Assembly: GCA_018175075.1 (NCBI GenBank)
Contig: GCA_018175075.1_4100.1
Strand: one strand, 5' to 3'
From: a phage
Length of the DNA stretch: 64,000 nt
In this document: piece after piece, positions 41,225 through 55,843 of the stretch
How the letters are laid out: each line of letters opens with the position of its first letter
How positions within the stretch are numbered: the stretch's first letter is position 1
Position numbers and translations under genes: made by a program
The notes under the pieces: model-generated
Database searches by the model: none
Told to the model about the DNA's origin: nothing
The model's input: only the letters and a program-made list of their open reading frames with translations

Positions 41225-41464
41225 ATGGCTAAATCAAAAATGTTCTTAGGTCACAAAAACAAAACTCATTGGAATGTAAGCCTGTGGATTAATAACGATG
41301 AGGGATTGTATCGGTTGGCCCTGGATTTTATTAACGACAACACTAATCGCAATGATGCGGCCCGTCATATGATGTTATTTTTAGAACAGACTGGACAAGA
41401 TAAAACACCGGACGGATTCAAATATAGCACTACTGCGATCCGTGCGGCGATGGTTGGAATGTAA
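41225..41464 (+). CDS. hypothetical protein, 79 aa (paralog of 43265 gene)
   Basis: AAGAGGA RBS; shares GHKNKTHWNVSLWINN...PDGFKYSTTAIRAAMVGM. Confidence 0.65.
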   Translation: MAKSKMFLGHKNKTHWNVSLWINNDEGLYRLALDFINDNTNRNDAARHMMLFLEQTGQDKTPDGFKYSTTAIRAAMVGM

Positions 41465-41511
41465 TAGAATAGAATTTATTTAAAGTACTATCGCAAAAAA
41501 TGATAGTACTT

Positions 41512-41517
41512 TATAAT
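41512..41517 (+). promoter_or_regulatory. possible -10 element (weak -35)
   Basis: TATAAT 37 nt upstream of ATG 41555. Confidence 0.3.
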
Positions 41518-41554
41518 AGTGTTTTATTCATACACCAACGATAAGGGCAACAGC

Positions 41555-41818
41555 ATGAATATTAAGTATTTTGCGACGCGTGAACAAGCTCGGATCGCTG
41601 CACGCCAGGACGGGGCAACGTTTAAAGATATGGGCGTACAATCGGAACGTGGTAAACGTTGGGCCATTGTAAAGCGTAGTACCGCCAGATCATTACAGTA
41701 CTGGTTAGCGGCCTTAAAAAGTCCCGATAGTGTATCGCGTCGAGTGGTAGAAATAAAGCTCGACCGAAAGGGCAACCGCGTGACCGTGTACCGTACTAAA
41801 AAGATTGCAGTACTATAA
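41555..41818 (+). CDS. hypothetical protein, 87 aa (paralog of 54831 gene)
   Basis: AAGGG RBS; shares FATREQARIAARQDGA and DRKGNRVTVY. Confidence 0.6.
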   Translation: MNIKYFATREQARIAARQDGATFKDMGVQSERGKRWAIVKRSTARSLQYWLAALKSPDSVSRRVVEIKLDRKGNRVTVYRTKKIAVL

Positions 41819-41826
41819 AAAAGTAC

Positions 41827-41886
41827 TTGCAAACTCTGTTTAATGGCGTATAATGTTTTACATCGAGAGCGGGAACACTTCCCGCC
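41827..41886 (+). promoter_or_regulatory. class-I early promoter plus leader hairpin
   Basis: TTGCAA, 16 nt, TATAAT, then AGCGGGAACACTTCCCGC. Confidence 0.6.
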
Positions 41887-41906
41887 TATAACCTGGAGTA
41901 ATAAAA

Positions 41907-42137
41907 ATGACTAATATGTATATGACTGAAGTTAAAACCGTAAAAGATACTACCACAAATAAAGTTACTTACTTACAGCGGATCTGTGGTGTATGGCAAC
42001 GTATCAGCAAATCAAAGTACTATAAATTAACATCATATGCAAACCGTTCTGATTCATTCAGTACTGAAATAAAAGGTAATAAAGTACACCAATACGGCAC
42101 TTATTATTATTACAGCCTGGACGCGATTGCAGTATAA
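41907..42137 (+). CDS. hypothetical protein, 76 aa
   Basis: ATG with GGAG RBS. Confidence 0.55.
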   Translation: MTNMYMTEVKTVKDTTTNKVTYLQRICGVWQRISKSKYYKLTSYANRSDSFSTEIKGNKVHQYGTYYYYSLDAIAV

Positions 42138-42167
42138 GCAGTTTACAAATCTTTACAATTGCCGGTA

Positions 42168-42196
42168 TTGACTTATTTTGTCAGTACTGGCATAAT
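42168..42196 (+). promoter_or_regulatory. sigma70-like promoter with no ORF downstream
   Basis: TTGACT, 17 nt, CATAAT; downstream is repeat element, not coding. Confidence 0.4.
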
Positions 42197-42219
42197 GTAT
42201 TCATTGGCAGATAAGCCGT

Positions 42220-42247
42220 AGCCCATAGGGTGCGGGAGTGTATCTAT
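42220..42247 (+). repeat. AGCCCA(N)AGGGTGC element, forward copy
   Basis: AGCCCATAGGGTGCGGGAGTGTATCTAT; inverted partner GCACCCGGTGGG at 42279-42290. Confidence 0.45.
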
Positions 42248-42384
42248 AGAAAAATTAGTTTAGTATAGTTACAATTGTGCACCCGGTGGGTTAGCTGTTG
42301 TCATGGGGTATATTATGCCAGTACTGGATAGTGCTGTCAATACTTTTTTAATATTCAGTACTGAAAACTATTTTTAAAAAGTAC

Positions 42385-42412
42385 TTGCAAACTATGTTTA
42401 AAGGCGTATAAT
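42385..42412 (+). promoter_or_regulatory. class-I early promoter driving candidate ncRNA
   Basis: TTGCAA, 16 nt, TATAAT, GTTTTACATC. Confidence 0.55.
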
Positions 42413-42418
42413 GTTTTA

Positions 42419-42502
42419 CATCAGGACGGGGAACGAAATAAGTAACTTCCCGTTAAGTAGCCCAGGAGTAAGGCACACGAAAAACTCCCCTGATAAAATA
42501 GT
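42419..42502 (+). ncRNA. candidate structured RNA, copy 1
   Basis: about 80 nt without ATG; internal hairpin CGGGGAA...TTCCCG and terminal ATCAGG...CCTGAT pairing; near-identical copy at 53635. Confidence 0.4.
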
Positions 42503-42530
42503 TTGACAATTGTTTTTAAAAGCGTATAAT
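42503..42530 (+). promoter_or_regulatory. sigma70-like promoter
   Basis: TTGACA, 16 nt, TATAAT. Confidence 0.55.
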
Positions 42531-42562
42531 ACTTACATCAACTACTGAATGAGGGTTACAAA

Positions 42563-43174
42563 ATGAAAACTATCACTACTACTACTTTCGTTATGGATTT
42601 TTCTGAATTGAACGCAGAACAAAAAACGTCAGCTATCGAACTGGTTCGGGAACGTGAAAAAAACTCAAACGACAATTATTTTTCTGAAAGTGAAATTGAA
42701 TACTATAAAGAAACAGTACTACCGGAATATGGCATTAATGACGCTGAAATACAATTCAGTGGCTTTTGGTCCCAGGGTGACGGTGCATCAATCAGTACTG
42801 ACCACGTTGACGCAGTGAAGTTTTTACGCAAGGTAAGAGCATTAACTAAGTATCGCTCAATCCGTCACCTGCTGAATGAAGATGATTTGGCGATGAGTGT
42901 AAAGCGTTCGCACTCCCACTACTCGCATGAGAATACTGTAAGCGGGTACATTGAATCGGCTTACACTGATTTAACCGCAAAACAAGAAACGTTAGTTAAT
43001 GAGCTTGAGGAACTACTCACTGAAACTATTCGTGAATTGTCCCGCAAGTTGTACCGTGATTTAGAGAATGCATATGAGGATCAATTCACCACTGAAAACA
43101 TTACGGCACTGATTGAGGGTAACGAATATCAATTCAATGTTATTGATGGCGTAGTAGAATCAATCGAATATTAA
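42563..43174 (+). CDS. hypothetical acidic protein, 203 aa
   Basis: GAGGG RBS; acidic; WSQGDGASI and HSHYSHEN motifs. Confidence 0.55.
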   Translation: MKTITTTTFVMDFSELNAEQKTSAIELVREREKNSNDNYFSESEIEYYKETVLPEYGINDAEIQFSGFWSQGDGASISTDHVDAVKFLRKVRALTKYRSIRHLLNEDDLAMSVKRSHSHYSHENTVSGYIESAYTDLTAKQETLVNELEELLTETIRELSRKLYRDLENAYEDQFTTENITALIEGNEYQFNVIDGVVESIEY

Positions 43175-43186
43175 TTTAAAAAGTAC

Positions 43187-43246
43187 TTGCAAACTAAGTT
43201 TAAAAGCGTATAATACTTTATATCGAGGCGGGGAATGGTTCCCCGC
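43187..43246 (+). promoter_or_regulatory. class-I early promoter plus leader hairpin
   Basis: TTGCAA, 16 nt, TATAAT, then GCGGGGAATGGTTCCCCGC. Confidence 0.6.
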
Positions 43247-43264
43247 TCAAACGAGGATTTAAAA

Positions 43265-43504
43265 ATGGCTAGTACTAAAACTTACAACGGTCACAAAAAC
43301 AAAACTCATTGGAATGTAAGCCTTTGGATTAATAACGGTGAGTCATTGTATCGGCTTGCTCAAAGTTGCATCGCACAAAGTAGAACTAAAGATATTGCTG
43401 CGGAATGTATGTACCGCAGATTAAAAGCCAACGGTACTACTACAACGCCGGACGGCTTTAAGTATAGCACTACTGCGATCCGTGCTGCAATGGTTGGAAT
43501 GTAA
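43265..43504 (+). CDS. hypothetical protein, 79 aa (paralog of 41225 gene)
   Basis: GAGGA RBS; conserved C-terminus. Confidence 0.65.
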   Translation: MASTKTYNGHKNKTHWNVSLWINNGESLYRLAQSCIAQSRTKDIAAECMYRRLKANGTTTTPDGFKYSTTAIRAAMVGM

Positions 43505-43517
43505 TATTCAGTACTGA

Positions 43518-43546
43518 GATAATGGCGGGGAATGGTTCCCGCCTTT
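43518..43546 (+). promoter_or_regulatory. degenerate promoter/leader hairpin, may act as terminator
   Basis: GATAAT then GGCGGGGAATGGTTCCCGCC hairpin and TTT. Confidence 0.4.
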
Positions 43547-43561
43547 ACTGAGGGTTATCTA

Positions 43562-43849
43562 ATGAGTAAAGTAATAAAGTACAATGTGTTAAGTAAATCA
43601 TTGTCTATCAGTGAATGCACCGATGGTTTTTGGATGTACGATGAAACGCGTGGCATGAATTTAGCTATGCGTGCAAAAACTGCTGAGGCGGCGTATATTC
43701 AAGCACTGGAATACTACCAGGAACGTTTAAAGGAAGTAGAAGAAGATTATAAAAGCCTCAAAGCGAAAGTAGATCATTTCGTCGGTCAATTCGTGGAAGA
43801 CAACGACGAGGACGGGCACTACTGCGACCGTTGCGGATCTTACAGTTAA
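43562..43849 (+). CDS. hypothetical protein, 95 aa
   Basis: ATG with GAGGG RBS; C-terminal CDRCG. Confidence 0.5.
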   Translation: MSKVIKYNVLSKSLSISECTDGFWMYDETRGMNLAMRAKTAEAAYIQALEYYQERLKEVEEDYKSLKAKVDHFVGQFVEDNDEDGHYCDRCGSYS

Positions 43850-43866
43850 GTACTAAGGATTATATA

Positions 43867-44079
43867 ATGAGTGATTTAATTGAACGTATCAAAGAGCTTG
43901 AAGAAAAAGAATTGCAGTTGATCGGGTTACGGAATAAAGTATTCCATGATTTAGGTGGCTTTATTAATGCCTGGGATAGTGGCGATCCTGATGCGTTACC
44001 TGCTAACCGCCAGGCGATGATCAATGATGTGCGTGGTGTCTTTGAGTATGTTTTAAAAGTACTAGACACTAAGCAATAA
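43867..44079 (+). CDS. hypothetical protein, 70 aa
   Basis: ATG with AAGGA RBS. Confidence 0.5.
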   Translation: MSDLIERIKELEEKELQLIGLRNKVFHDLGGFINAWDSGDPDALPANRQAMINDVRGVFEYVLKVLDTKQ

Positions 44080-44090
44080 AGGCGTATAAT
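44063..44090 (+). promoter_or_regulatory. possible promoter
   Basis: TAGACA, 16 nt, TATAAT overlapping 3' end of upstream gene. Confidence 0.3.
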
Positions 44091-44140
44091 ACTTTATATT
44101 GGTACTGACAAACATTATAAGCGATTCAGGAGCTTTAATC

Positions 44141-44326
44141 ATGACAACATTATCTGAGGTTATCCGCGTTCAAGCTGCAAAGGCTGGAATGACTGTTATC
44201 AATGTAGGGATCAAGATTGAGATCTCCCCTAACGAGTTGCAAGGGATTCCCGATCCTACTAGCTGGGATCGTGCTGGGCGAATGATGCGTAATGCTTCAT
44301 TACTGGACGGTACAAAATTTAATTAA
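44141..44326 (+). CDS. hypothetical protein, 61 aa
   Basis: ATG with AGGAG RBS. Confidence 0.5.
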   Translation: MTTLSEVIRVQAAKAGMTVINVGIKIEISPNELQGIPDPTSWDRAGRMMRNASLLDGTKFN

Positions 44327-44333
44327 AAAGTAC

Positions 44334-44392
44334 TTGCAATTAGTTTTTAGTACTGTATAATGGTTTACATCAAAGGGAGAAATGGTTCTCCC
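44334..44392 (+). promoter_or_regulatory. class-I early promoter plus leader hairpin
   Basis: TTGCAA, 16 nt, TATAAT, then GGGAGAAATGGTTCTCCC. Confidence 0.6.
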
Positions 44393-44411
44393 TGGTAATG
44401 AGGAAAATAAA

Positions 44412-44633
44412 ATGGCTAATATCACTACTCTTTCCCAACTGGAAGCACTGGTTAAATCTATGCGGGAACATGCCGACAAAATCGGCGTACAAGATCCAGC
44501 CGTTTGCTTCTGCGACGAAATGAATGATGATACACTGGTAATAGCAGAAGTCCAGGACGTTTCTAACTATTCCTCGCGTTACACTGGCGGCGTAGCAAAT
44601 AAAGGTGACTTCTGTTTATACCTTACAAAATAA
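44412..44633 (+). CDS. hypothetical protein, 73 aa
   Basis: ATG with GAGGAAA RBS. Confidence 0.55.
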   Translation: MANITTLSQLEALVKSMREHADKIGVQDPAVCFCDEMNDDTLVIAEVQDVSNYSSRYTGGVANKGDFCLYLTK

Positions 44634-44637
44634 CAAC

Positions 44638-44668
44638 GCGGGGAGATAATAACTCCCCGTTACTTTTT
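44638..44668 (+). terminator. rho-independent terminator
   Basis: CGCGGGGAG...CTCCCCG hairpin then TTTTT. Confidence 0.6.
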
Positions 44669-44699
44669 CAGTACTGAATCATTTAATAGACGGATCTCG

Positions 44700-44711
44700 G
44701 CACCCGGTGGG
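44700..44711 (-). repeat. AGCCCACCGGGTGC element, inverted copy
   Basis: GCACCCGGTGGG. Confidence 0.4.
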
Positions 44712-44801
44712 TTAGTGACTGTTTCGTCTTGATGTAGTAATTATGCCAGTACTGGATGCACTTGTCAACAACTATTTTTCAAATACTTTTTATTAAAATA
44801 C

Positions 44802-44856
44802 TTGCAATTAGTTTTTAAACGCGTATAATGTTTTGCATAGGGGGAGCGGTTCCCCT
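44802..44856 (+). promoter_or_regulatory. class-I early promoter plus leader hairpin
   Basis: TTGCAA, 16 nt, TATAAT, then GGGGAGCGGTTCCCC. Confidence 0.6.
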
Positions 44857-44876
44857 GGTAACTAAGGAATAATAAA

Positions 44877-45113
44877 ATGCTTGAACAAATCAAATCAACG
44901 TCTGCGAATGTAACGGGAACGGTAGCACACTTTACTAGTGATGAATCGCGGGGCGTTCCCTATTGTGCTGTACATGTAAACACTGAGGGTAACTACTGGT
45001 TTACGGTTTACGGATCATATTCATTTGGACGGCCTGGACATCAAAAAATTCTGGATAAAGTACAGCCAACGGGTAAAAATATCACTGCTGAAATGTTTTA
45101 TAAAAAATCATAA
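44877..45113 (+). CDS. hypothetical protein, 78 aa
   Basis: ATG with AAGGAA RBS. Confidence 0.55.
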   Translation: MLEQIKSTSANVTGTVAHFTSDESRGVPYCAVHVNTEGNYWFTVYGSYSFGRPGHQKILDKVQPTGKNITAEMFYKKS

Positions 45114-45118
45114 AGTAC

Positions 45119-45178
45119 TTGATAATAGTTTTTAGTACTGTATAATATTTTACATCGCAAGGGGGGAGCGGTTCCCCC
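45119..45178 (+). promoter_or_regulatory. class-I early promoter plus leader hairpin
   Basis: TTGATA, 16 nt, TATAAT, then GGGGGAGCGGTTCCCCC. Confidence 0.55.
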
Positions 45179-45198
45179 TGGTAACTAAGGATAATCAA

Positions 45199-45498
45199 AT
45201 GAAAATTGCAATCATCGCCCTGGCTTTATCTGTTTCCTCTTTCGCTGTTAATGCGTCGTTAGATGTAAGTAGTGAAAAATTCATTCAGTGCACTGTAGCG
45301 ATGACCAATGAAAGTACTGGCGAGATTGTTTTAAAGGATTTAGAGATCCAGCCAGAAGCATTTAAAAACGGGCCGTTCCATGAAGAAGACGAAAAAGGTA
45401 GCACGACAATTTATTACGATGCAAGTACTAAACGCGGTTCGGTCACTGTTATGGATACTGAGAAAGTAACGCATTCCGGCGTTATTAATTGCCGTTGA
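45199..45498 (+). CDS. secreted protein (signal peptide), 99 aa
   Basis: AAGGA RBS; signal peptide ending VNA/S. Confidence 0.55.
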   Translation: MKIAIIALALSVSSFAVNASLDVSSEKFIQCTVAMTNESTGEIVLKDLEIQPEAFKNGPFHEEDEKGSTTIYYDASTKRGSVTVMDTEKVTHSGVINCR

Positions 45499-45519
45499 TA
45501 GATACTACGGGGTAACATC

Positions 45520-45750
45520 ATGACTAAGCGAATTGTTTTACTTAACGAAAGCAGTACTACACAACTACTTAACGCCGTGCATTATGATATTGAAACGAGC
45601 GTTAATCTTATCAGTACTGTAGTACTGTTGGACACTGGAAAGGTCGCCAATGATAAAGCGATTGCAGGTATATTAACGGATCTTGAGCCTGGTAGCAGTG
45701 CACCAATAACGTTAAATGGTAAAGTGTTTAATATTTTACTCACTGATTAA
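45520..45750 (+). CDS. hypothetical protein, 76 aa
   Basis: ATG with GGGG RBS. Confidence 0.45.
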   Translation: MTKRIVLLNESSTTQLLNAVHYDIETSVNLISTVVLLDTGKVANDKAIAGILTDLEPGSSAPITLNGKVFNILLTD

Positions 45751-45756
45751 GTACAT

Positions 45757-45778
45757 AGCCCACCTGGTGGGCTTTTTT
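45757..45778 (+). terminator. rho-independent terminator
   Basis: AGCCCACC-TGGTGGGCT hairpin then TTTTTT. Confidence 0.65.
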
Positions 45779-45832
45779 GTTTTTGTAGTATCGTAGTACT
45801 GAGATACTTTGAAAATAGTTTTAAAAAAATAG

Positions 45833-45860
45833 TTGACATTACCGCAAAAAGGCGTAGAAT
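45833..45860 (+). promoter_or_regulatory. sigma70-like promoter
   Basis: TTGACA, 16 nt, TAGAAT. Confidence 0.5.
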
Positions 45861-45866
45861 ATATTA

Positions 45867-45945
45867 CATCAAGACGGGGAGCACTAAGTAGACCGCCAGT
45901 AAGTCGAACGAAAAACTGGACACGTCGAGAAAACTTTGATACACT
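45867..45945 (+). ncRNA. candidate structured RNA, divergent copy 3 (or long 5' leader of 45984 gene)
   Basis: shares CATCARGACGGGGA, AGTAAG and ACGAAAAACT blocks with copies at 42419 and 53635; no ORF. Confidence 0.3.
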
Positions 45946-45983
45946 AATAAACGTAAACTAAACTTTAATTGAGGATTTATAAA

Positions 45984-50598: not shown

Positions 50599-50616
50599 AA
50601 TATATTACCAGTACTA

Positions 50617-50644: not shown

Positions 50645-50688
50645 AAGTTTTATAAACAGTAGTTAACTTAACCTAAGAGAGAAATAAA

Positions 50689-50832: not shown

Positions 50833-50838
50833 TATTAT

Positions 50839-50866
50839 AGCCCACTGGTTAACGCTGGTGGGCTTT
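50839..50866 (+). terminator. terminator-like hairpin
   Basis: AGCCCAC...GTGGGCT hairpin then TTTAATT. Confidence 0.5.
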
Positions 50867-50937
50867 AATTCATTACCCTATACAATGCCAGTACTAAACC
50901 GTTTATCTCGTTAGAATGCATTACAGGACGTTTGACA

Positions 50938-51135
50938 ATGATTAGCATGAAATCAGTACAAAAACAAATAGAAACATTATCAAAAATTAAACGTAAACAG
51001 TACTCGTTAGAATATACAATCAATGGTAACTATCATCTAATGAAAGAAAATAATTTTATAGTCATTGATGAATCATTGCAAATCATTAGTATAGTACTGA
51101 AAGCATTAATTAATGATAGAAAAAAATTAAAATAA
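50938..51135 (+). CDS. hypothetical protein, about 65 aa (AT-rich)
   Basis: ORF; start ambiguous (track start 50932 is TTG). Confidence 0.35.
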   Translation: MISMKSVQKQIETLSKIKRKQYSLEYTINGNYHLMKENNFIVIDESLQIISIVLKALINDRKKLK

Positions 51136-51139
51136 TCTA

Positions 51140-51168
51140 TTGACAATATCCTCCAGTACTGGCATAAT
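51140..51168 (+). promoter_or_regulatory. sigma70-like promoter
   Basis: TTGACA, 17 nt, CATAAT. Confidence 0.5.
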
Positions 51169-51228
51169 ACTTACATCAAGACGAGAACGTCACTAACCCA
51201 TAGGGTGCACAAATGTAACTATATAACA

Positions 51229-51305
51229 TCGATCAATAAATGATCAAAAAAGTACTGGATCAATTTAGCATAAGGCGTATAATTCTGATCAATTCTTGAT
51301 CAAAG
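51229..51305. repeat. cluster of five TGATCAA (GATC) sites
   Basis: GATC at about 51231, 51242, 51258, 51287, 51298 in a non-coding leader. Confidence 0.5.
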
Positions 51306-51464
51306 GCAATATACGCAGTTGAATTTATATAGACAGTACAAAGGCGTTACTATCCGTGGTAATGCTGGTGGATATGTAGTATCATGTGGTTTGAATAAGA
51401 TTAGCACTAGTAGTATTATTGTAGCATTACAGTACTATAGTATTTTTATAATGAGGTTAAAATA

Positions 51465-51722
51465 ATGGCAGTAGGATACGCGAAAGACGGGGCCGAACAA
51501 GACGAGATTAACGCAGTGATTCAGGCCGCCGTTAACCACGCTAGAAAGCAAATTAACGCACAAAGAGAATCACTAGTACATTGCCTCGACTGCGGCGATA
51601 AAATCCCTGAGAATCGACGCCAGGCCGTTATAGGGTGCATGTATTGTATTACTTGCCAGGCGGATCATGATAGTACTTTTAAAAGAGATCCGCGTAATTG
51701 TTGGCATAGATCTATGAGATAA
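51465..51722 (+). CDS. TraR/DksA-family C4 zinc-finger protein, 85 aa
   Basis: C-x2-C-x17-C-x2-C (CLDCGDKIPENRR...CMYCITC) with RKQINAQR upstream, typical of TraR/DksA. Confidence 0.7.
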   Translation: MAVGYAKDGAEQDEINAVIQAAVNHARKQINAQRESLVHCLDCGDKIPENRRQAVIGCMYCITCQADHDSTFKRDPRNCWHRSMR

Positions 51723-51729
51723 AAAGTAA

Positions 51730-51757
51730 TTGACAGTACTGAAAGATAGTGTATAAT
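51730..51757 (+). promoter_or_regulatory. sigma70-like promoter
   Basis: TTGACA, 16 nt, TATAAT, GTTTTATATC. Confidence 0.55.
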
Positions 51758-51786
51758 GTTTTATATCTTAAATGAGGATAGAAATC

Positions 51787-52143
51787 ATGGGAATACAACA
51801 TATCACGCGTACTACTGACAATGGCGAGATCACTGGTTATCAGGTACAGGGCAAAGTAGCACAATTGCAGTACTGGTTTGTTAAACGTGGAATCATTGCA
51901 CCGGATCTTGATTATGACCGTGTTGCTTTCATTGATTCTCTTTATGTTGATCCTGATAGTCGGGGCAATGGTGAAGGTAACGAATTAATGAATGCCTTTA
52001 TCGATGCCGCCGATGATTCAGATTGTATCATCTTAGAATGCGATACGGGAGAAGATAACGCCTTTAATCTTAAAGAATGGTACGAAGGTTTCGGATTCGA
52101 GGTATTGATAGATAGTGAATATCCTATCATGATTTTATCATAG
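51787..52143 (+). CDS. putative GNAT-family acetyltransferase-like protein, 118 aa
   Basis: GAGGA RBS; SRGNGEGNELMNAFIDAA and WYEGFGFE resemble GNAT motifs. Confidence 0.45.
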   Translation: MGIQHITRTTDNGEITGYQVQGKVAQLQYWFVKRGIIAPDLDYDRVAFIDSLYVDPDSRGNGEGNELMNAFIDAADDSDCIILECDTGEDNAFNLKEWYEGFGFEVLIDSEYPIMILS

Positions 52144-52146
52144 TAC

Positions 52147-52203
52147 TTGCATTTAGTTTTCAGTACTGTTATAGTACTTACATCAAGGGGAAACATCTTC
52201 CCC
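52147..52203 (+). promoter_or_regulatory. class-I early promoter plus leader hairpin
   Basis: TTGCAT, 17 nt, TATAGT, then GGGGAAACATCTTCCCC. Confidence 0.55.
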
Positions 52204-52221
52204 TACTAAGAGGAAATGAAA

Positions 52222-52410
52222 ATGGAAAACTTATCAAGTATTTTAGTACAAGATGATTTCGGTAATCCTGGAAGTGCTATCATAGTTCGGGGCAATAAAG
52301 CAACGTTTGTTATTGCTGGTGGACCCGTACAGCGTAGCATTAAAAATAATGCTGTTACCATTAATAATGTACGCTATCGCTTAGATAAAGAATTAATTCA
52401 TAAACTGTAA
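52222..52410 (+). CDS. hypothetical protein, 62 aa
   Basis: ATG with AAGAGGAAA RBS (alternative start 52216). Confidence 0.5.
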   Translation: MENLSSILVQDDFGNPGSAIIVRGNKATFVIAGGPVQRSIKNNAVTINNVRYRLDKELIHKL

Positions 52411-52437
52411 TATTAATTTAATAGAGGATAACAATAA

Positions 52438-52761
52438 ATGTACATTCATACTACTATCACAAAGGAAGTCCGTTGCCAGTTCGAAAGTATTCCGGGCGTA
52501 TGTTTCATCACTGGTACGTTTTCCCCTGGTGATCGTGATAATCCAGTACTGTTACAATTACGCCATCCATCATGGGATAAAGCATTTGATCTACCGTTGA
52601 ATGAATTCGCAACTACTGCTGAAAAGTACATTAAAAATATTCGCGAGAATGATCGACTATTCATTAATGCTTTTAGTGATTCCGCGTTAAGCGAGATCCA
52701 CGGTGTATTGGTTGCAATCATGGAATCAATGGAGAAAACTAAATTCAAACAAGGTGAATAA
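52438..52761 (+). CDS. hypothetical protein, 107 aa
   Basis: ATG with AGAGGA RBS. Confidence 0.55.
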   Translation: MYIHTTITKEVRCQFESIPGVCFITGTFSPGDRDNPVLLQLRHPSWDKAFDLPLNEFATTAEKYIKNIRENDRLFINAFSDSALSEIHGVLVAIMESMEKTKFKQGE

Positions 52762-52767
52762 AAACTA

Positions 52768-52827
52768 TTGACAAGATAATCTAGTACTGTATAATAAGTT
52801 ACATGAAGGGGAGAAATGATTCTCCCC
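52768..52827 (+). promoter_or_regulatory. early promoter plus leader hairpin
   Basis: TTGACA, 16 nt, TATAAT, then GGGGAGAAATGATTCTCCCC. Confidence 0.6.
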
Positions 52828-52844
52828 ACTGAGAGGAAAGAAAA

Positions 52845-53057
52845 ATGCAAGGTCAACTAATCGTTCGTAAATGGTCTGATACTAACGCTAAACCGTGGGA
52901 TGTACAATACATCGGCCCCAATGGTGAATCCAGATATCAACCAGGTGTAACGCATAGTACTGAGCAATTCGCCGCCGCTCATCGTGAACGTCTGTTACAA
53001 TCAATGCAGCAAGGTTCCGGTGAAAAATTCATTCAGGATCATTGGCTGAAAGATTAA
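52845..53057 (+). CDS. hypothetical protein, 70 aa
   Basis: ATG with GAGAGGAAA RBS. Confidence 0.55.
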   Translation: MQGQLIVRKWSDTNAKPWDVQYIGPNGESRYQPGVTHSTEQFAAAHRERLLQSMQQGSGEKFIQDHWLKD

Positions 53058-53064
53058 AAAGTAC

Positions 53065-53121
53065 TTGCACAGTACTGAATAAAGTGTATAATGTTTTATA
53101 TCGGAAGGGGAATAGTTCCCC
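53065..53121 (+). promoter_or_regulatory. class-I early promoter plus leader hairpin
   Basis: TTGCAC, 16 nt, TATAAT, then GGGGAATAGTTCCCC. Confidence 0.6.
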
Positions 53122-53143
53122 TCCCAACAAAGAGGAAAGTATA

Positions 53144-53317
53144 ATGATCCAAGTAGAATTATCAGTACTGAAAGATCTGTTTTATCGGTTAGGTACTAAT
53201 GGCGAGTATCCTAAAAGTGATACCGCAAAACTTTTTGTATCACTCGACTTATGGCAACGCGAACAATTAGTAATGTCCTGGCGTAAAGGTAAAGCAGATC
53301 GCGAGGTGAAAGCATGA
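53144..53317 (+). CDS. hypothetical protein, 57 aa
   Basis: ATG with AGAGGAAA RBS; track ORF 53042 extends into the promoter. Confidence 0.5.
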   Translation: MIQVELSVLKDLFYRLGTNGEYPKSDTAKLFVSLDLWQREQLVMSWRKGKADREVKA

Positions 53318-53463
53318 AAGAATTCTTATTCGAAGTAGTGTTTCAAGGTGTCGGTAGTAACCAACTGATTCGATCAAGTGGTTACAATGTCAACCAGGCA
53401 TGGAATAACATTAAACAAATGTACCCGAACGCTATCACCTATCGCAACCCGAAAGAAGTTTAA
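53314..53463 (+). CDS. hypothetical small protein, 49 aa
   Basis: ATGA overlap with upstream stop; followed by terminator. Confidence 0.4.
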   Translation: MKEFLFEVVFQGVGSNQLIRSSGYNVNQAWNNIKQMYPNAITYRNPKEV

Positions 53464-53477
53464 AAATAATTGAAAAA

Positions 53478-53502
53478 GGGATTGACTCCGGTCAGTCCCT
53501 TT
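53478..53502 (+). terminator. rho-independent terminator
   Basis: GGGATTGACTCCGGTCAGTCCC hairpin then TTT. Confidence 0.65.
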
Positions 53503-53529
53503 GCTATTATATACGCATAGAAACAAATC

Positions 53530-53557
53530 AGCCCACCGGGTGCATAAATGTATCTAT
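53530..53557 (+). repeat. AGCCCACCGGGTGC element, forward copy
   Basis: AGCCCACCGGGTGCATAAATGTATCTAT, followed by GCTGGTGG. Confidence 0.45.
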
Positions 53558-53600
53558 TGTTTGCTGGTGGCTAGTACTGAAAACTATTTTAAAAAAGTAC

Positions 53601-53628
53601 TTGCATTGTACTTAGAATAAAGTATAAT
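53601..53628 (+). promoter_or_regulatory. class-I early promoter driving candidate ncRNA
   Basis: TTGCAT, 16 nt, TATAAT, GTTTTACATC. Confidence 0.55.
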
Positions 53629-53634
53629 GTTTTA

Positions 53635-53715
53635 CATCAGGACGGGGAACGAAACAAGTAACCCCGTTAAGTAGTCCAGGAGTAAGACATACGAAAAACT
53701 CCCCTGATAAAATAG
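53635..53715 (+). ncRNA. candidate structured RNA, copy 2
   Basis: near-identical to 42419-42502 with stem changes that keep pairing (CGGGG...CCCCG); no ORF. Confidence 0.4.
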
Positions 53716-53716
53716 T

Positions 53717-53744
53717 TTGACAATAGAAAGTAAACGAGTATAAT
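53717..53744 (+). promoter_or_regulatory. sigma70-like promoter
   Basis: TTGACA, 16 nt, TATAAT. Confidence 0.55.
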
Positions 53745-53777
53745 ACTCACATCAACCACTGATAAGGAAACATAAAA

Positions 53778-54053
53778 ATGCGGATTCTACTGACAGCTAA
53801 CGAAATCGAACAAGTACTGACTACTAACCTGGAAGACTGGAAACGTGAAGCAGATATCCAGGCGGTTCAACAGCTTAACGATGAGTTAACGCCGGATGAC
53901 TTAAGCAAGATTGTAGATCCTCAATTCTACGAAGATATCCACGACACCGCGTTAAGCGTCGAGGATGTACTAGATAAGCACTACATTGATATTGATTTGC
54001 AGGTTTACGGTCGTAAAAACTTTATCACTATTCACGACATTTACAATAATTAA
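53778..54053 (+). CDS. hypothetical acidic protein, 91 aa
   Basis: ATG with AAGGAAA RBS. Confidence 0.55.
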   Translation: MRILLTANEIEQVLTTNLEDWKREADIQAVQQLNDELTPDDLSKIVDPQFYEDIHDTALSVEDVLDKHYIDIDLQVYGRKNFITIHDIYNN

Positions 54054-54056
54054 GTA

Positions 54057-54118
54057 TTGACAAAGTATCTTAGTACTGTATAATAGTTTACATCGAGTGA
54101 GGGGAAACGGTTCCCCTC
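54057..54118 (+). promoter_or_regulatory. early promoter plus leader hairpin (about 90 bp module, copy 1)
   Basis: TTGACA, 16 nt, TATAAT, then GAGGGGAAACGGTTCCCCTC. Confidence 0.6.
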
Positions 54119-54141
54119 CTAACAAAGAGAGAGAAATAAAA

Positions 54142-54324
54142 ATGGCTAAGTGCACTATCTGCAAGAAAGAAATAGTATTAGTTCCAAGTGCCCGTGAACG
54201 TGCCGCTCGGTTCGGTGGCAAAGCGTCAGACTATACAAAAATGTTTACTACCCATGCAGCTTGCCAGGTAGCAAAACGTTCACAAGAAAGCGTAGAATTA
54301 ATGCGTAAACTTTCCAAAAAATAA
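54142..54324 (+). CDS. small Cys-containing protein, 60 aa
   Basis: AGAGAGA RBS; CTIC...HAAC. Confidence 0.5.
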   Translation: MAKCTICKKEIVLVPSARERAARFGGKASDYTKMFTTHAACQVAKRSQESVELMRKLSKK

Positions 54325-54327
54325 GTA

Positions 54328-54388
54328 TTGACAAAGTATCTTAGTACTGTATAATAGTTTACATCAAGTGAGGGGAATGGTTCCCCTC
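54328..54388 (+). promoter_or_regulatory. early promoter plus leader hairpin (module copy 2)
   Basis: TTGACA, 16 nt, TATAAT, then GAGGGGAATGGTTCCCCTC. Confidence 0.6.
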
Positions 54389-54411
54389 CTAACTAAAAGA
54401 GAGAAATAAAA

Positions 54412-54735
54412 ATGGCTATGATCCTTGCCCAGAAAGTAGAATTGAAAATTGTAACCTCATTTGACATTAACGTTAATCGGTGGACTGATTCACACGGCAA
54501 TACTTACCACTCTTGCTACGTGTCTGCGTTAATTGGCGACCGCTGGGAAGACCTGGGACATGAAACCTTTACATACGGTTACGGCACACAAGGCGAATAC
54601 ACGGGCTTGGAGATCATTAAAGAAACCGTTATAGGTTTCAACCCGAAAGAAAAAGTTATTCACCAAATCGAAAAAGAGATTAACAAAGAAATAACAGTTC
54701 GATACAACGATGTAAAACGTAAGAAAGACATGTAA
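54412..54735 (+). CDS. hypothetical protein, 107 aa (paralog of 47590 gene)
   Basis: AGAGAGAAA RBS; conserved motifs. Confidence 0.6.
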   Translation: MAMILAQKVELKIVTSFDINVNRWTDSHGNTYHSCYVSALIGDRWEDLGHETFTYGYGTQGEYTGLEIIKETVIGFNPKEKVIHQIEKEINKEITVRYNDVKRKKDM

Positions 54736-54757
54736 TAGAATCCATTTAAAGTACTAT

Positions 54758-54786
54758 TTGACATTGCCCAGATAGTACTTTATAAT
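54758..54786 (+). promoter_or_regulatory. sigma70-like promoter
   Basis: TTGACA, 17 nt, TATAAT. Confidence 0.55.
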
Positions 54787-54830
54787 AGACTCTAACTTGT
54801 AGTACTAACTTAACTAATAGGATGTATACC

Positions 54831-55226
54831 ATGATTACTAAATTCTACGCTACCCGTGAAGCTGCCCGTATTGTTGCACGCGAGGAAGGAGCAGCATTTA
54901 AAGACATGGGCAAAGATGCACCGAAAGGCCAACGCTGGGCCGTACAGTTCAAAGAGATCTCTGATATTGTGAATTCACCTGAGCCAGTACTAACAGCAGC
55001 AGAACTAAAACGAGCGGATATGCTGGCGGCAATACTTGACGCACAAGATGAGTTTATCGCTGGTTCTGATATCAAAGTACAGGTAAACCACACCGCATGG
55101 ACTCACGCGGATCACCTGGCAAACCTTAAGCGTCCAAGTGAACTGATTCGCAACCAGAAAGAGATCCGACATGATCGTAAGGGTAATCGTGTAACAGTAT
55201 ACAGTAAACGCCGCCAGGTTATCTAA
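54831..55226 (+). CDS. hypothetical protein, 131 aa (paralog of 41555 gene)
   Basis: AGGA RBS; conserved N- and C-terminal blocks. Confidence 0.6.
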   Translation: MITKFYATREAARIVAREEGAAFKDMGKDAPKGQRWAVQFKEISDIVNSPEPVLTAAELKRADMLAAILDAQDEFIAGSDIKVQVNHTAWTHADHLANLKRPSELIRNQKEIRHDRKGNRVTVYSKRRQVI

Positions 55227-55248
55227 TAACTTGCAGTACTAACAACAC

Positions 55249-55273
55249 GGCGGGATCAGTTCCCGCCTTTTTT
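55249..55273 (+). terminator. rho-independent terminator
   Basis: GGCGGGA-TCAGT-TCCCGCC hairpin then TTTTTT. Confidence 0.7.
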
Positions 55274-55287
55274 ATAGGACAAACAAA

Positions 55288-55542
55288 ATGATTAAGGTTC
55301 AACTATATAAAGATAACATCTTACGGGTACACTATAAAGCACCTCAGAGAATCATCACAAAGGCCGTACAGCTTGCTAATGAGTTTATTAATGGTAACCT
55401 ATTACCTAGGAAGTTAAGCAACGGGAAACTGCGTGTAATCGACGTGGACACTAACAACAGGATAGTAATCGAGAACACAGGAAAGATAAACCTTTATGAG
55501 CATCAACAATACAATAAGAAAATAAAACTAATATCACGTTGA
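55288..55542 (+). CDS. hypothetical protein, 84 aa
   Basis: ATG with AGGA RBS. Confidence 0.5.
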   Translation: MIKVQLYKDNILRVHYKAPQRIITKAVQLANEFINGNLLPRKLSNGKLRVIDVDTNNRIVIENTGKINLYEHQQYNKKIKLISR

Positions 55543-55567
55543 CAGTACTCAAATGTTTTAGTACTAT
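55539..55567 (+). promoter_or_regulatory. sigma70-like promoter (module copy 1)
   Basis: TTGACA, 17 nt, TACTAT. Confidence 0.5.
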
Positions 55568-55595
55568 GTACACATACCAACACGGGAGAAACAAA

Positions 55596-55814
55596 ATGAA
55601 ATTATCTAAAATCGAAAAGAAAACTATTGATGAAGCAGTTAAGCACGGTTATACCTTTCGTAATGATTCACATTTTACCAATTTTCAACAAGGGTATCGT
55701 ACTATTAAAAAACTAATTGACAAAGGTTTATTAGTTGAAGTCAATAACGGTAACGGTATCGAGTATCAACCAACACAAGACGCATTTTATTTTAAGAAAT
55801 ATAATATTATCTAA
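55596..55814 (+). CDS. hypothetical protein, 72 aa
   Basis: ATG with GGGAGAAA RBS. Confidence 0.5.
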   Translation: MKLSKIEKKTIDEAVKHGYTFRNDSHFTNFQQGYRTIKKLIDKGLLVEVNNGNGIEYQPTQDAFYFKKYNII

Positions 55815-55843
55815 TTGACAGTACTCAAATGTTTTAGTACTAT
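55815..55843 (+). promoter_or_regulatory. sigma70-like promoter (module copy 2)
   Basis: TTGACA, 17 nt, TACTAT; about 60 bp direct repeat of 55539 module. Confidence 0.5.

Follow-up and report, generated by a model that had tools for sequence, protein, structure and literature searches.

Promoter modules as probable sites of single-gene exchange in the terminal repeat of an Asteriusvirus jumbo coliphage

Most genes in the direct terminal repeat (DTR) of this phage are self-contained cassettes, each with its own promoter module or 'expression adaptor', and these adaptors probably provide portable homology for gaining, losing and swapping genes one at a time and for sharing them across phages. 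Recombination at the modules is shown, at the level of sequence, by comparison with relatives: by event boundaries, direct-repeat signatures, chimeric junctions and scrambled sharing.

Sequence comparison identifies the source as an Asteriusvirus (PBECO4/121Q, RaK2-like) jumbo coliphage with E. coli as host, Asteriusvirus genomes being 92-97% identical to the region. The window (the whole 64,000-nucleotide stretch that was analysed) contains the DTR and its leader:
39039..60492 (+): DTR, 21,454 bp, present in the window as a single, collapsed copy
39039..40671 (no strand): left leader of the DTR, non-coding, containing TCAGTACTGA repeats

In the JP4 record, window position 39039 comes immediately after position 60492, and it is the first base of the records of fEgEco12 and vB_Ec-M-J. 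A DTR of 21,525 bp is annotated in vB_Ec-M-J; that of fEgEco12 was determined as 20,993 bp by PhageTerm and restriction digests (PMC13070987). Tandem 16/24/48-nt repeats lie at 39845-39944 in the leader, which also has promoter units in both orientations. The region under study is the coding part of this ~21.5-kb repeat, comprising ~55 small genes, all on the same strand and mostly of unknown function, with a largest protein of no more than 203 amino acids. It would represent an early, host-takeover region where host RNA polymerase acts on the promoters right after infection, a timing argued by analogy with the related jumbo phage PA5oct, whose 39-kb DTR holds 105 genes, many highly transcribed early (PMC7318152).

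Called as consensus matches, 46 predicted sigma70-type promoter modules have -35 positions from 40686 to 59579, with a start codon directly downstream in 37. A module of ~90-110 bp consists, in order, of an A-tract, AGTACT box, -35, 16-17-nt spacer, -10, initial transcribed sequence GTTTTACATC, a hairpin in about half, Shine-Dalgarno sequence (SD) and ATG. The GC-rich hairpin (consensus GGGRAA-loop-TTYCCC) begins 12-14 nt past the -10, ahead of the SD and ATG, and occurs in 25 of the 46 modules, 24 canonical and one degenerate (43494). The largest class has the form AAAGTACTTGCA-N17-TATAAT-GTTTTACATC followed by the hairpin. Neighbouring modules resemble one another only slightly more than randomly paired modules do (p = 0.027).
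40672..40768 (+): promoter module, -35 40686, -10 end 40713, hairpin 40727-40745, SD and ATG, gene 40769
41132..41224 (+): promoter module, -35 41146, 5' hairpin 41185-41205, gene 41225
41813..41906 (+): promoter module, -35 41827, 5' hairpin 41869-41887, gene 41907
42154..42241 (+): promoter module, -35 42168, then CCCATAGGGTGC motif, no ORF directly downstream
42371..42457 (+): promoter module, -35 42385, long structured leader, no ORF directly downstream
42489..42562 (+): promoter module, -35 42503, no hairpin, gene 42563
43173..43264 (+): promoter module, -35 43187, 5' hairpin 43227-43247, gene 43265
43480..43561 (+): degenerate module (43494), TTGGAA-18-GATAAT, hairpin 43524-43543, gene 43562
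44049..44140 (+): promoter module, -35 44063, no hairpin, gene 44141
44320..44411 (+): promoter module, -35 44334, 5' hairpin 44374-44393, gene 44412
44788..44876 (+): promoter module, -35 44802, 5' hairpin 44838-44859, gene 44877
45105..45198 (+): promoter module, -35 45119, 5' hairpin 45160-45179, gene 45199
45819..45905 (+): promoter module, -35 45833, no canonical hairpin, long leader, then gene 45984
46654..46750 (+): promoter module, -35 46668, 5' hairpin 46708-46729 (two G.U pairs), gene 46751
46973..47064 (+): promoter module, -35 46987, 5' hairpin 47027-47047, gene 47065
48779..48871 (+): promoter module, -35 48793, 5' hairpin 48833-48852, gene 48872
49008..49099 (+): promoter module, -35 49022, 5' hairpin 49062-49081, gene 49100
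49473..49560 (+): composite, terminator-like hairpin 49480-49507 around -35, TTGACT-17-TATTAT, then CCCACAGGGTGC motif
49595..49687 (+): promoter module, -35 49609, 5' hairpin 49650-49668, gene 49688
50029..50122 (+): promoter module, -35 50043, 5' hairpin 50083-50102, gene 50123
50603..50688 (+): promoter module, -35 50617, no hairpin, gene 50689
51126..51213 (+): promoter module, -35 51140, then CCCATAGGGTGC motif, no ORF directly downstream
51716..51786 (+): promoter module, -35 51730, no hairpin, GNAT gene 51787
52133..52221 (+): promoter module, -35 52147, 5' hairpin 52186-52204, gene 52222
52754..52844 (+): promoter module, -35 52768, 5' hairpin 52808-52827, gene 52845
53051..53143 (+): promoter module, -35 53065, 5' hairpin 53106-53122, gene 53144
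53468..53555 (+): composite, terminator-like hairpin 53475-53502 around -35, TTGACT-17-TATTAT, then CCCACCGGGTGC motif
53587..53673 (+): promoter module, -35 53601, long structured leader
53703..53777 (+): promoter module, -35 53717, no hairpin, gene 53778
54744..54830 (+): promoter module, -35 54758, no hairpin, gene 54831
56736..56823 (+): composite, terminator-like hairpin 56743-56770 around -35, TTGACT-17-TATTAT, then CCCATAGGGTGC motif
56858..56953 (+): promoter module, -35 56872, 5' hairpin 56913-56932, gene 56954
57165..57261 (+): promoter module, -35 57179, 5' hairpin 57219-57237, gene 57262
57716..57809 (+): promoter module, -35 57730, 5' hairpin 57770-57791, gene 57810
58052..58140 (+): promoter module, -35 58066, 5' hairpin 58104-58122, gene 58141
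58693..58789 (+): promoter module, -35 58707, 5' hairpin 58747-58767, gene 58790
59000..59087 (+): composite, terminator-like hairpin 59007-59034 around -35, TTGACT-17-TATTAT, then CCCACAGGGTGC motif
59143..59238 (+): promoter module, -35 59157, gene 59239
59565..59660 (+): final DTR module, -35 59579, 5' hairpin 59619-59643, gene 59661

The original prediction had listed three repeated promoter blocks. All are real, with similarity far above chance, and they are a small sample of the family of 46, whose largest class was missing from that list.
47198..47274 (+): 77-nt promoter block ('class-II'), repeat family, copy 1
47490..47566 (+): 77-nt promoter block, copy 2, 99% identical to copy 1
50325..50401 (+): 77-nt promoter block, copy 3, 86% identity
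54040..54148 (+): ~108-nt module, copy 1 (copies 89-91% identical)
54311..54418 (+): ~108-nt module, copy 2 (copies 89-91% identical)
55539..55600 (+): ~62-nt module, copy 1, TTGACA-17-TACTAT
55815..55876 (+): ~62-nt module, copy 2, repeat of the 55539 module

A fourth, weak copy of the 77-nt block (61%) lies at 50587. For all three blocks, at least one relative lacks the cassette that the block flanks. The 292-bp cassette between the 47198 and 47490 copies is missing in fEgEco12, JNE01, G17, CMSTMSU, ECO103 and EC22.5-2; that with gene 54142-54324, between the ~108-nt copies, in JP4, TH47 and L007 (an IMG/VR contig); and that with gene 55596-55814, between the ~62-nt copies, in TH47. JP4, TH47 and L007 have a single ~108-nt module that is a chimera of copies 1 and 2. 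Where relatives have one copy against two in the window, it resembles copy 1 on the left and copy 2 on the right, with one switch inside the promoter core; switch points differ, falling in the upstream flank, in the spacer or downstream of the -10. At the module 57165..57261 it is relatives that have an additional cassette, of ~395 bp, with a 101-bp repeat on its flanks.

Over the interval 40650-60492, 11 relatives yielded 38 distinct indels or replacements. With module windows set at -25 to +100 around the -35 hexamer, occupying 28% of the region, 62 of 76 event boundaries were located in modules against 28% expected (binomial p = 4e-22). Overlapping alignments of 43-108 bp, a direct-repeat signature, were found for 15 events, and 14 of these coincide with a promoter module: where one genome has a single copy of the module, the other has a copy on either flank. 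Some overlap at junctions would be expected under any insertion mechanism if every cassette has a similar promoter of its own. The repeats might instead be functionally constrained promoters only, with random illegitimate recombination or slippage from which selection keeps the between-gene events. Strong sigma70 promoters necessarily resemble one another, ~14 of the 76 boundaries lie outside module windows, and selection against disrupted genes shifts surviving breakpoints into intergenic DNA, 69% of non-coding DNA being module. However, when non-coding bases alone are counted, 53 of 55 boundaries still fall in modules against that 69% (p = 5e-7), and the junction modules are clean chimeras that switch within shared sequence. 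The 99% identity over 77 nt, spacer and upstream flank included, far exceeds what a promoter needs, and promoter spacers group into subfamilies, which indicates common descent and not convergence. Constraint alone is therefore an unlikely explanation.

Recombination at promoter repeats is thus supported by cassette order among the isolates, the comparison by which the original prediction was to be checked. In JP4, gene 47288 stands behind the 46987 promoter, a swapped promoter-gene combination, and in L007 the 43265 slot holds a homolog of 44877. Several cassettes have bimodal allele identities, ~65-70% vs ~95-100%.

The hairpin stems, of which 46 are distinct, show compensatory changes at five of seven consensus pairs. 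At internal stem positions, 31 cases of G.T stand against 8 of A.C (p = 3e-4; positions 2-6, a subset chosen post hoc, in related sequences), with p = 0.08 across all eight stem positions. This asymmetry argues for an RNA rather than a DNA role, and the hairpin most likely works at the RNA level, as a 5' mRNA stabiliser or insulator or as a read-through attenuator. The same observation counts against a dedicated site-specific system, either integron-like or based on a structure-specific nuclease, that would move cassettes by way of the GGGRAA/TTYCCC hairpin. Such a system would suit the conservation and fixed position of this inverted repeat and cassette arrays that are integron-like in outline, and the authors who described PeSLs raised the speculative idea of a protein that targets GGGG...CCCC stems (PMC2839356). 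Nevertheless, the switch points vary, the hairpin-less modules 47198/47490 and 55539/55815 recombine equally well, and no recombinase family match was obtained among 29 DTR proteins scanned, none longer than 203 amino acids, which makes this system very improbable.

Four paralog pairs had been proposed together with the repeat blocks, and three of them hold.
41225..41464 (+): gene of family DUF7249/phrog_871, paralogous to 43265
43265..43504 (+): gene of family DUF7249/phrog_871, paralogous to 41225
41555..41818 (+): gene of family phrog_8127, paralogous to 54831
54831..55226 (+): gene of family phrog_8127, paralogous to 41555
47590..47913 (+): gene of family phrog_6246, paralogous to 54412, predicted hairpin-less 'class-II' promoter
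54412..54735 (+): gene of family phrog_6246, paralogous to 47590, predicted TTGACA/TATAAT promoter with hairpin

By BLASTP, 41225/43265 share 63.8% identity over 80 amino acids (E = 5e-34), 41555/54831 35% (E = 1.6e-17) and 47590/54412 37% over 107 amino acids (E = 4e-26). The fourth pair, 47288/50419, gave no alignment even at E <= 100 and is not paralogous: all that the two genes share is the promoter block upstream of them and their first four codons, ATGGCTATCATC. The paralog pairs (35-64% identity) are old and occur in nearly all relatives, and so hold no record of recent duplication, while the cassettes gained or lost are mostly unrelated genes, not duplicates. The claim that recombination creates and moves cassettes therefore stands for their addition, deletion, replacement and relocation; creation by duplication is less well supported.

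Unrelated phages of the Stephanstirmvirinae, 145-150 kb in size, have nine of the cassettes in a scrambled order, with identities of up to 93% (amino acid) and 90% (nucleotide) for shared cassettes and module. Justusliebigvirus 'outra' has homologs of nine (31-93% amino acid identity; Spearman order correlation -0.27), and gene 41225 is 92% identical at the amino acid level to a gene in a Phapecoctavirus-like 150-kb phage. Many Stephanstirmvirinae phages carry the module between genes at 80-87% identity, and there the same hairpin, GAGAGCGGGAACACTTCCCGCC, also precedes the DUF7249 gene. These genomes bear on whether cassette presence and absence could be an artefact that 60-110-bp repeats caused when the relatives were assembled from short reads. 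Assemblies can collapse repeats, and several of the records carry the label 'UNVERIFIED' or consist of raw SPAdes nodes; yet 3-6 isolates that were sequenced independently share the same events, typical reads are longer than the repeats, the deleted cassettes have different genes and are not identical copies that collapsed, and unrelated Stephanstirmvirinae genomes carry the same cassettes in other orders. An assembly artefact is thus scarcely credible.

Adaptors would act as portable homology because they resemble one another. Homologous recombination may join non-allelic adaptors, or adaptors of co-infecting phages, and would thereby delete, insert, replace or relocate single genes with their neighbours undisturbed, converting two adaptors into one chimeric adaptor or the reverse. 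In the literature, no description was found of such shuffling for the Asteriusvirus lineage, for terminal repeats or across phage groups. The turnover of DTR cassettes matches the PeSL-type 'modular shuffling' of T4-like phages; small circles are a reported feature of T4-type PeSLs, and on that precedent excised DTR cassettes may likewise pass through small circles.

Megablast of positions 41000-56000 against GenBank phages matched 205 records, nearly all of them E. coli Asteriusvirus jumbo myophages of approximately 350-385 kb, including fEgEco12, Ecwhy_1, JP4, vB_Ec-M-J, G17, phAPEC6, 121Q and PBECO4. The top match exhibited 96.8% identity at 92% coverage and coverage fell to approximately 30% in other members, indicating that the region is a mosaic. 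The records of fEgEco12 and vB_Ec-M-J both begin at window position 39039, the latter with an annotated direct terminal repeat (DTR) of 21,525 bp beginning at base 1. In the JP4 record, which contains two tandem DTR copies, position 60492 is directly joined to position 39039. The DTR can therefore be placed at 39039-60492 (21,454 bp), present once in the window. The DTR of fEgEco12, of 20,993 bp, was confirmed by PhageTerm and restriction digests (PMC13070987). The interval 41225-55843, described in the original prediction as an early region of duplicated promoter-gene modules, lies entirely within the DTR. The JP4 record (L004, PQ330092) is permuted, with the two repeat copies arranged head to tail mid-record (134409-162571); it helps to define the repeat ends, yet is easily mistaken for a tandem duplication. 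The left end of the DTR (39039-40671) comprises 1.6 kb without ORFs, with eight copies of TCAGTACTGA, promoter units on both strands, tandem repeats of 16, 24 and 48 nt (39845-39944) and a duplicated 53-nt unit (40569/40622) that varies among relatives. This stretch is a candidate packaging or replication signal.

A total of 46 promoter modules were identified between 40686 and 59579, approximately one per 420 bp and all on the plus strand. These predicted promoters match TTGACA/TTGCAA-16/17-TATAAT at 10-12 of 12 positions and have an A-rich upstream tract. In 37 of the 46, an SD sequence and ATG follow within 75 nt of the -10 hexamer, placing the module directly upstream of a start codon. Several forms of module were distinguished.

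Forms of the promoter module (window positions, plus strand)
Commonest form: AAAAAGTAC-TTGCAA-N16-TATAAT-GTTTTACATC, GC hairpin (GGGRAA, 3-5-nt loop, TTYCCC), approximately 10-15 nt, SD and ATG
Second form: TTGACA-16-TATAAT with the same GC hairpin
Class-II block form: CAGTACTATTGACA-N17-(TG)GCATAAT, hairpin-less
55539 and 55815: TTGACA-17-TACTAT
49480, 53475, 56743 and 59007: four composite elements, a 12-bp terminator-like stem enclosing the -35 of TTGACT-17-TATTAT

The spacer sequence between -35 and -10 is not constrained for sigma70 function. The spacers of the modules still form clear sequence subfamilies, e.g. AACTATGTTTAAWGGCG, ATTAGTTTTTAGTACTG, TTGTACTTAGAATMAAG and AAAGTATCTTAGTACTG, with best matches that are often neighbours, which argues for descent of the modules rather than convergence. 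Adjacent modules exceeded random pairs in similarity only marginally (p=0.027), and local spread of modules is not relied upon. Both the repeat family and its terminal repeat context are established by sequence comparison. An interpretation of the modules as classical terminator and promoter units was rejected, as only approximately eight canonical terminator-like sites are present on the plus strand of the repeat. These include the four composite TTGACT elements, and most 5' hairpins lack a U-tract.

Five compound intergenic regions of 230-400 bp (42154-42562, 49458-49687, 53461-53777, 56721-56953 and 59000-59238), spaced 2.3-7.3 kb apart, each consist of a composite or class-II promoter, a copy of CCCAYNGGGTGC and a class-A promoter, sometimes with a third promoter. 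These regions may divide the repeat into larger units and could possibly represent small RNAs. Ten copies of CCCAYNGGGTGC were found, against 0.56 expected by chance, on both strands.

Positions of CCCAYNGGGTGC
Plus strand: 42222, 49542, 51197, 53532, 56805, 59064
Minus strand: 40128, 40343, 42279, 44700

The element is always located approximately 21-28 nt past the -10 of a sigma70-type promoter, at a distance kept within each sub-type, and is followed by RTGTAWCTAT. Approximately 70 variants occur in relatives, including other jumbo-phage genera. Several of the units have no downstream ORF and two pairs are convergent. No Rfam match or covarying RNA structure was obtained for CCCAYNGGGTGC. 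The idea that it caps a larger RNA stem with covariation was rejected; RNAalifold yielded only a 3-4-bp CCC/GGG stem with no covariation, and matched 5' and 3' flanks paired no better than mismatched flanks (-5.14 vs -5.09 kcal/mol, p=0.43).

The palindrome AGTACT, often as CAGTACTG, is present in 283 copies in the window, 10-20 times over-represented. It is the commonest hexamer of the terminal repeat (145 copies) and has zero copies in 60501-64000. It occurs in most promoters, frequently as a pair spaced 20-23 bp. The 27 large coding sequences of 1-34289 contain 59 copies, distributed over all three frames, compared with 11.8 ± 3.3 in codon-order shuffles. No literature pairing AGTACT with 'jumbo phage' was found. 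Just outside the DTR, at 60532-63791, one promoter (60532) is followed by a tandem array of approximately 14 mutually paralogous ORFs of 52-90 aa whose stop and start codons overlap, without AGTACT or internal promoters; the length of this array differs among relatives (61826/62156 in Ecwhy_1). A further tandem array, on the minus strand at 20097-34289, comprises 11 mutually paralogous ORFs of approximately 270-410 aa (25-46% identity, E down to 8e-82), and a twelfth ORF in the run (27400-28137) has no similarity to the other 11.

The DTR encodes approximately 55 genes with products of 30-203 aa; no ORF exceeds 203 aa. Pfam matches among the repeat proteins scanned were to a DksA/TraR zinc finger (51465), a GNAT acetyltransferase (51787), a ParE-like domain (55288) and three DUFs, and weakly to a kinase-like family (56147). 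Of the remaining proteins scanned, most had no Pfam match or only weak sub-threshold ones. None of the 29 repeat proteins scanned matched a recombinase family, and tRNA and Rfam searches of the window and the repeat yielded nothing above threshold. Seven starts from the automatic gene calls were corrected by hand against the sequence, six being ATGs in hairpin loops and one overlapping a -10 hexamer. Loops containing ATG (GAAATGGTT or GAAATGATT) behind a G-rich arm are found at 43235, 43532, 44382, 49070, 56921 and 59628, where ORF callers can be drawn to an in-frame ATG lying 30-33 nt before the true start, the one with an SD. Related records name very small proteins (window 45199, 49688, 50123 and 50689) 'protein spackle' (99 aa), 'DNA ligase' (113 aa), 'phosphoribosylpyrophosphate synthetase' (70 aa) and 'tail fiber protein' (47 aa). 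A Pfam scan of 45199 and 49688 did not support the functional names in the related records, and the names given to this gene set look like over-annotation. In vB_Ec-M-J the gene at 42563-43174 (203 aa) contains an in-frame tandem duplication of approximately 63 bp at its 5' end (42546-42612), outside the promoter modules.

Four pairs of scattered paralogs had been proposed in this region, and all-against-all BLASTP of the plus strand ORFs bore out three of them: 41225/43265 (63.8% identity, E=5e-34; both PHROG 871, equivalent to Pfam DUF7249), 41555/54831 (35%, E=1.6e-17; both PHROG 8127) and 47590/54412 (37%, E=4e-26; both PHROG 6246). The fourth, 47288/50419, gave no alignment at any E-value; the promoter block and first four codons are all that the two genes have in common, which explains why they were taken as paralogs. 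The recurring promoter blocks were recovered, with slightly greater lengths. The 70 bp class-II block, predicted three times, extends to 77 nt at 47198 and 47490 (99%) and 50325 (86%), with a weak further copy at 50587; the 90 bp block is approximately 108 nt at 54040 and 54311 (89-91%) and the 60 bp block approximately 62 nt at 55539 and 55815. These three blocks are a few members of the 46-module family.

The original prediction held that repeated recombination between promoter repeats creates and moves single-gene cassettes; a cassette is here taken as a gene together with its module. Positions 38001-61000 were aligned with the corresponding region of 11 relatives by chaining colinear megablast segments. 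The relatives were drawn from GenBank phage records, IMG/VR yielding only two related loci for a central gene. Within 40650-60492, 38 distinct indel or replacement events were identified, and 62 of their 76 boundaries fall between -25 and +100 of a -35 hexamer, a span that makes up 28% of the region (binomial p=4e-22). Since selection alone would enrich breakpoints in intergenic DNA, the test was repeated in non-coding DNA only, where 53 of 55 boundaries were located in modules against 69% expected (p=5e-7). For 15 events the alignments overlapped by 43-108 bp in one genome, and 14 of these overlaps coincide with a promoter module. In the events at modules, one phage has two flanking module copies and the other phage has one. 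Three-way alignments of events with two copies in the window showed that the single module of the relative resembles copy 1 on its left and copy 2 on its right, with a single switch in the shared promoter core. The exchange points are scattered within the homologous module segment.

Chimeric junctions in relatives (window positions of the two module copies)
54040/54311: chimeric in JP4, TH47 and L007 (an IMG/VR contig)
57763/58057: chimeric in L007
56931/57718: chimeric in TH47
47198/47490: chimeric in fEgEco12

All three of the predicted blocks are two-copy/one-copy exchange sites. The cassette 47198-47489 (292 bp) is absent from six relatives, that between 54040 and 54311 from three and that between 55539 and 55815 from one. 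A changed promoter-gene combination is seen in JP4, where 14 bp of SD/ATG microhomology join gene 47288 to the 46987 promoter, and in L007 the slot of 43265 is filled by a homolog of 44877 (81% aa identity). Allele identity is bimodal for several cassettes, at either approximately 65-70% or 95-100%, which fits replacement by diverged alleles between conserved linkers. Cassettes present in relatives and missing from the window mostly have no paralog in the window, indicating that the process chiefly gains and loses unrelated genes. The concentration of breakpoints and the direct-repeat and chimeric junctions, like the sharing between lineages considered below, are established by comparison between genomes. 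The original observation was thus largely correct, and its interpretation, the shifting of single-gene cassettes by recombination between promoter repeats, is supported by the comparison of cassette order among relatives. The creation of cassettes by duplication is the less well supported part; the three paralog pairs are old and nearly universal among the relatives. Exchange between flanking modules may involve circular intermediates.

A hairpin is present in 25 modules (24 canonical and a degenerate module at 43494), its stem beginning 12-14 nt after the -10 in most, at about +6 to +26 of the predicted transcript, and lacking a U-tract. The GGGRAA-loop-TTYCCC stems of these modules range from -10.6 to -18.5 kcal/mol in 48-nt folds. 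Across the window and relatives, 46 distinct stems were found, in all of which the 5' arm is rich in purines and the 3' arm in pyrimidines. RNAalifold recovered the stem from 24 window copies, with compensatory double changes in at least one copy at five of seven pairs. Mismatches were scored using a strand-neutral hairpin definition requiring at least six of eight Watson-Crick pairs. Over all eight stem positions G.T mismatches numbered 39 vs 24 A.C (p=0.08), and at internal positions 2-6, a subset chosen post hoc among related sequences, 31 vs 8 (p=3e-4). Because G.U is tolerated in sense-strand RNA and not in a symmetric DNA site, the excess of G.T lends limited support to a role at the RNA level. 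The hairpin may stabilise or insulate each cassette mRNA from a 5'-proximal position, or may attenuate read-through, as proposed for the stems of promoter-early stem-loop elements (PeSLs). Hairpin-less modules recombine equally well and the stem is therefore unnecessary for exchange.

Homologs of the DUF7249 gene with up to 92% aa identity were detected by tblastn in Stephanstirmvirinae coliphages of approximately 145-155 kb (Phapecoctavirus and Justusliebigvirus), which have only the class Caudoviricetes in common with Asteriusvirus. The Justusliebigvirus phage 'outra' (MN850645) carries homologs of nine window cassettes within 10 kb at 31-93% aa identity, in the order 57262, 40769, 50419, 47590, 41225, 46751, 50123, 47065 and 44877, which is unrelated to that of the window (Spearman -0.27). 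Nucleotide similarity to 'outra' is limited to single cassettes, e.g. 50109-50335 at 85%; in addition, a non-coding stretch of this phage matches the 140-nt non-coding leader 42400-42539 at 90% identity. The Stephanstirmvirinae module (TTGACA-N16/17, -10, approximately 7 nt, CAT, GGCGGGAAATGGTTTCCCGCC, AAAGAGA, ATGGCT) has the same architecture as that of the window, and approximately 12 modules of the TTGACA...GGCGGGAAATGGTTTCCCGCC...ATGGCT type are present at 101.9-111 kb of 'outra'. The hairpin GAGAGCGGGAACACTTCCCGCC upstream of the Stephanstirmvirinae DUF7249 gene is identical in window modules 40686 and 41827, and one 97-nt window module used as a query matched many Stephanstirmvirinae genomes in their intergenic DNA, at 80-87% identity. 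In IMG/VR, the exact class-A pattern was found almost only in jumbo-phage contigs of approximately 350 kb, plus one 109-kb contig. No literature linking Stephanstirmvirinae phages to promoter-stem-loop cassettes was found. These similarities are evidence that cassettes and their adaptors, i.e. the modules, have been swapped between unrelated coliphage groups.

One tentative reading, which taken as a whole we would give rather less than even weight, is that unrelated large virulent coliphages (the Asteriusvirus jumbo phages, Phapecoctavirus/Justusliebigvirus and perhaps the RB49 group) obtain their self-expressing single-gene cassettes from one shared pool. The common promoter/5'-hairpin/SD adaptor would supply both a standard expression signal and the homology for recombination during co-infection, allowing any cassette to enter any of these genomes. 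The terminal repeat of the jumbo phage would then serve as a recombinase-free, integron-like platform for the acquisition of early (anti-host or anti-defence) genes, with the (C)AGTACT(G) box and the promoter-proximal CCCAYNGGGTGC element as further, so far undescribed, regulatory signals.

The region reveals the sites and the manner in which a 350-kb phage renews its putative early accessory genes, the likeliest candidates for functions in host takeover and against host defences. The same adaptor and small genes circulate among phage groups with no other recognisable similarity. The 'modular shuffling' idea developed for PeSLs is extended from T4-type phages to jumbo phages and to exchange between lineages. 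The analysis yields a list of approximately 55 putative early genes, predicted to be independently expressed. It also provides a natural promoter-leader-RBS unit of compact size, and both are of use in functional screens and in engineering therapeutic coliphages. In annotation, it accounts for the terminal repeats being more variable than any other part of Asteriusvirus genomes.

Bacillus phage SPO1, with a host-takeover module in its terminal redundancy, and coliphage T5, with pre-early (first-step-transfer) genes in its terminal repeat, are systems known for host shut-off functions; neither is known for promoter-mediated cassette shuffling. As in these large virulent phages, many small early genes with strong host-type promoters, here predicted, are located in a long terminal repeat. 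The cassette genes lie within a long direct terminal repeat, as in early regions of the SPO1/T5/PA5oct type. PA5oct, a jumbo phage of a related clade, has a 39-kb terminal repeat of 105 genes, many highly transcribed early, together with non-coding RNAs (PMC7318152). RNA-seq data exist for PA5oct, and the passages on its repeat that were covered contain no promoter-hairpin cassette architecture or recombination analysis (PMC7318152). PA5oct supports, by analogy only, the DTR as the early region. The consensus sigma70 promoters together with this analogy suggest that the cassettes would be transcribed immediately after infection by unmodified host RNA polymerase. Papers on Asteriusvirus and RaK2-like phages (fEgEco12, phAPEC6, Sharanji and CBB) report repeats of approximately 21 kb or list RpoD-like promoters, and do not describe the module architecture or its recombination.

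Integron arrays resemble the region in having single-gene cassettes between short structured recombination sites and a gene content that differs between close relatives. Unlike integrons, the region has no integrase and no attC/attI, every cassette has its own promoter and exchange points are scattered in a homologous segment. This scatter, the 203 aa limit on ORF size and the lack of any recombinase hit in the 29 scanned repeat proteins speak against an integron cassette array.

The closest described system is the PeSLs of the T4-type phages RB49/phi1, T4/PST and KVP40/nt-1 (Arbiol et al. 2010, PMC2839356; Comeau et al. 2014, PMC4122927). In PeSLs, an AT-rich tract and a sigma70 promoter are combined with a GGGG...CCCC stem-loop, which takes one of five positions with respect to the promoter, and with an SD and ATG (PMC2839356). 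PeSLs lie mainly among ORFans, delimit the indels that separate close relatives and are able to form mini-circles (PMC2839356; PMC4122927). The modules are likewise composite intergenic elements of AT-rich tract, sigma70-like promoter, G-run/C-run stem-loop, SD and ATG, dense among small ORFan genes. They also bound indels and replacements, recombination between flanking elements gaining or losing one ORF, and in four elements (49480, 53475, 56743 and 59007) the stem overlaps the -35, as in one PeSL subclass. Unlike in the five published subclasses, most stems here are located after the predicted start site, at a fixed 12-14 nt past the -10 and with no U-tract, and hence would be transcribed from their own predicted promoter. 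The AGTACT box in the module and the approximately 40% of modules that are stemless are further differences, as is the occurrence of modules and cassettes in a second phage subfamily, compared with the PeSL reports (PMC2839356; PMC4122927). The host here is an Asteriusvirus jumbo phage and not a T4-type myovirus, and the elements are located in a long direct terminal repeat and not in internal hyperplastic regions; a T4-type host and a hyperplastic location describe where PeSLs were found rather than how they work. The modules possess the PeSL sequence features (promoter with AT-rich tract, stem-loop, SD and start codon) as well as the comparative feature, the bounding of indels. The mechanism is of a kind already known, the modular shuffling of PeSL type; what is new here is the lineage and the genomic setting.
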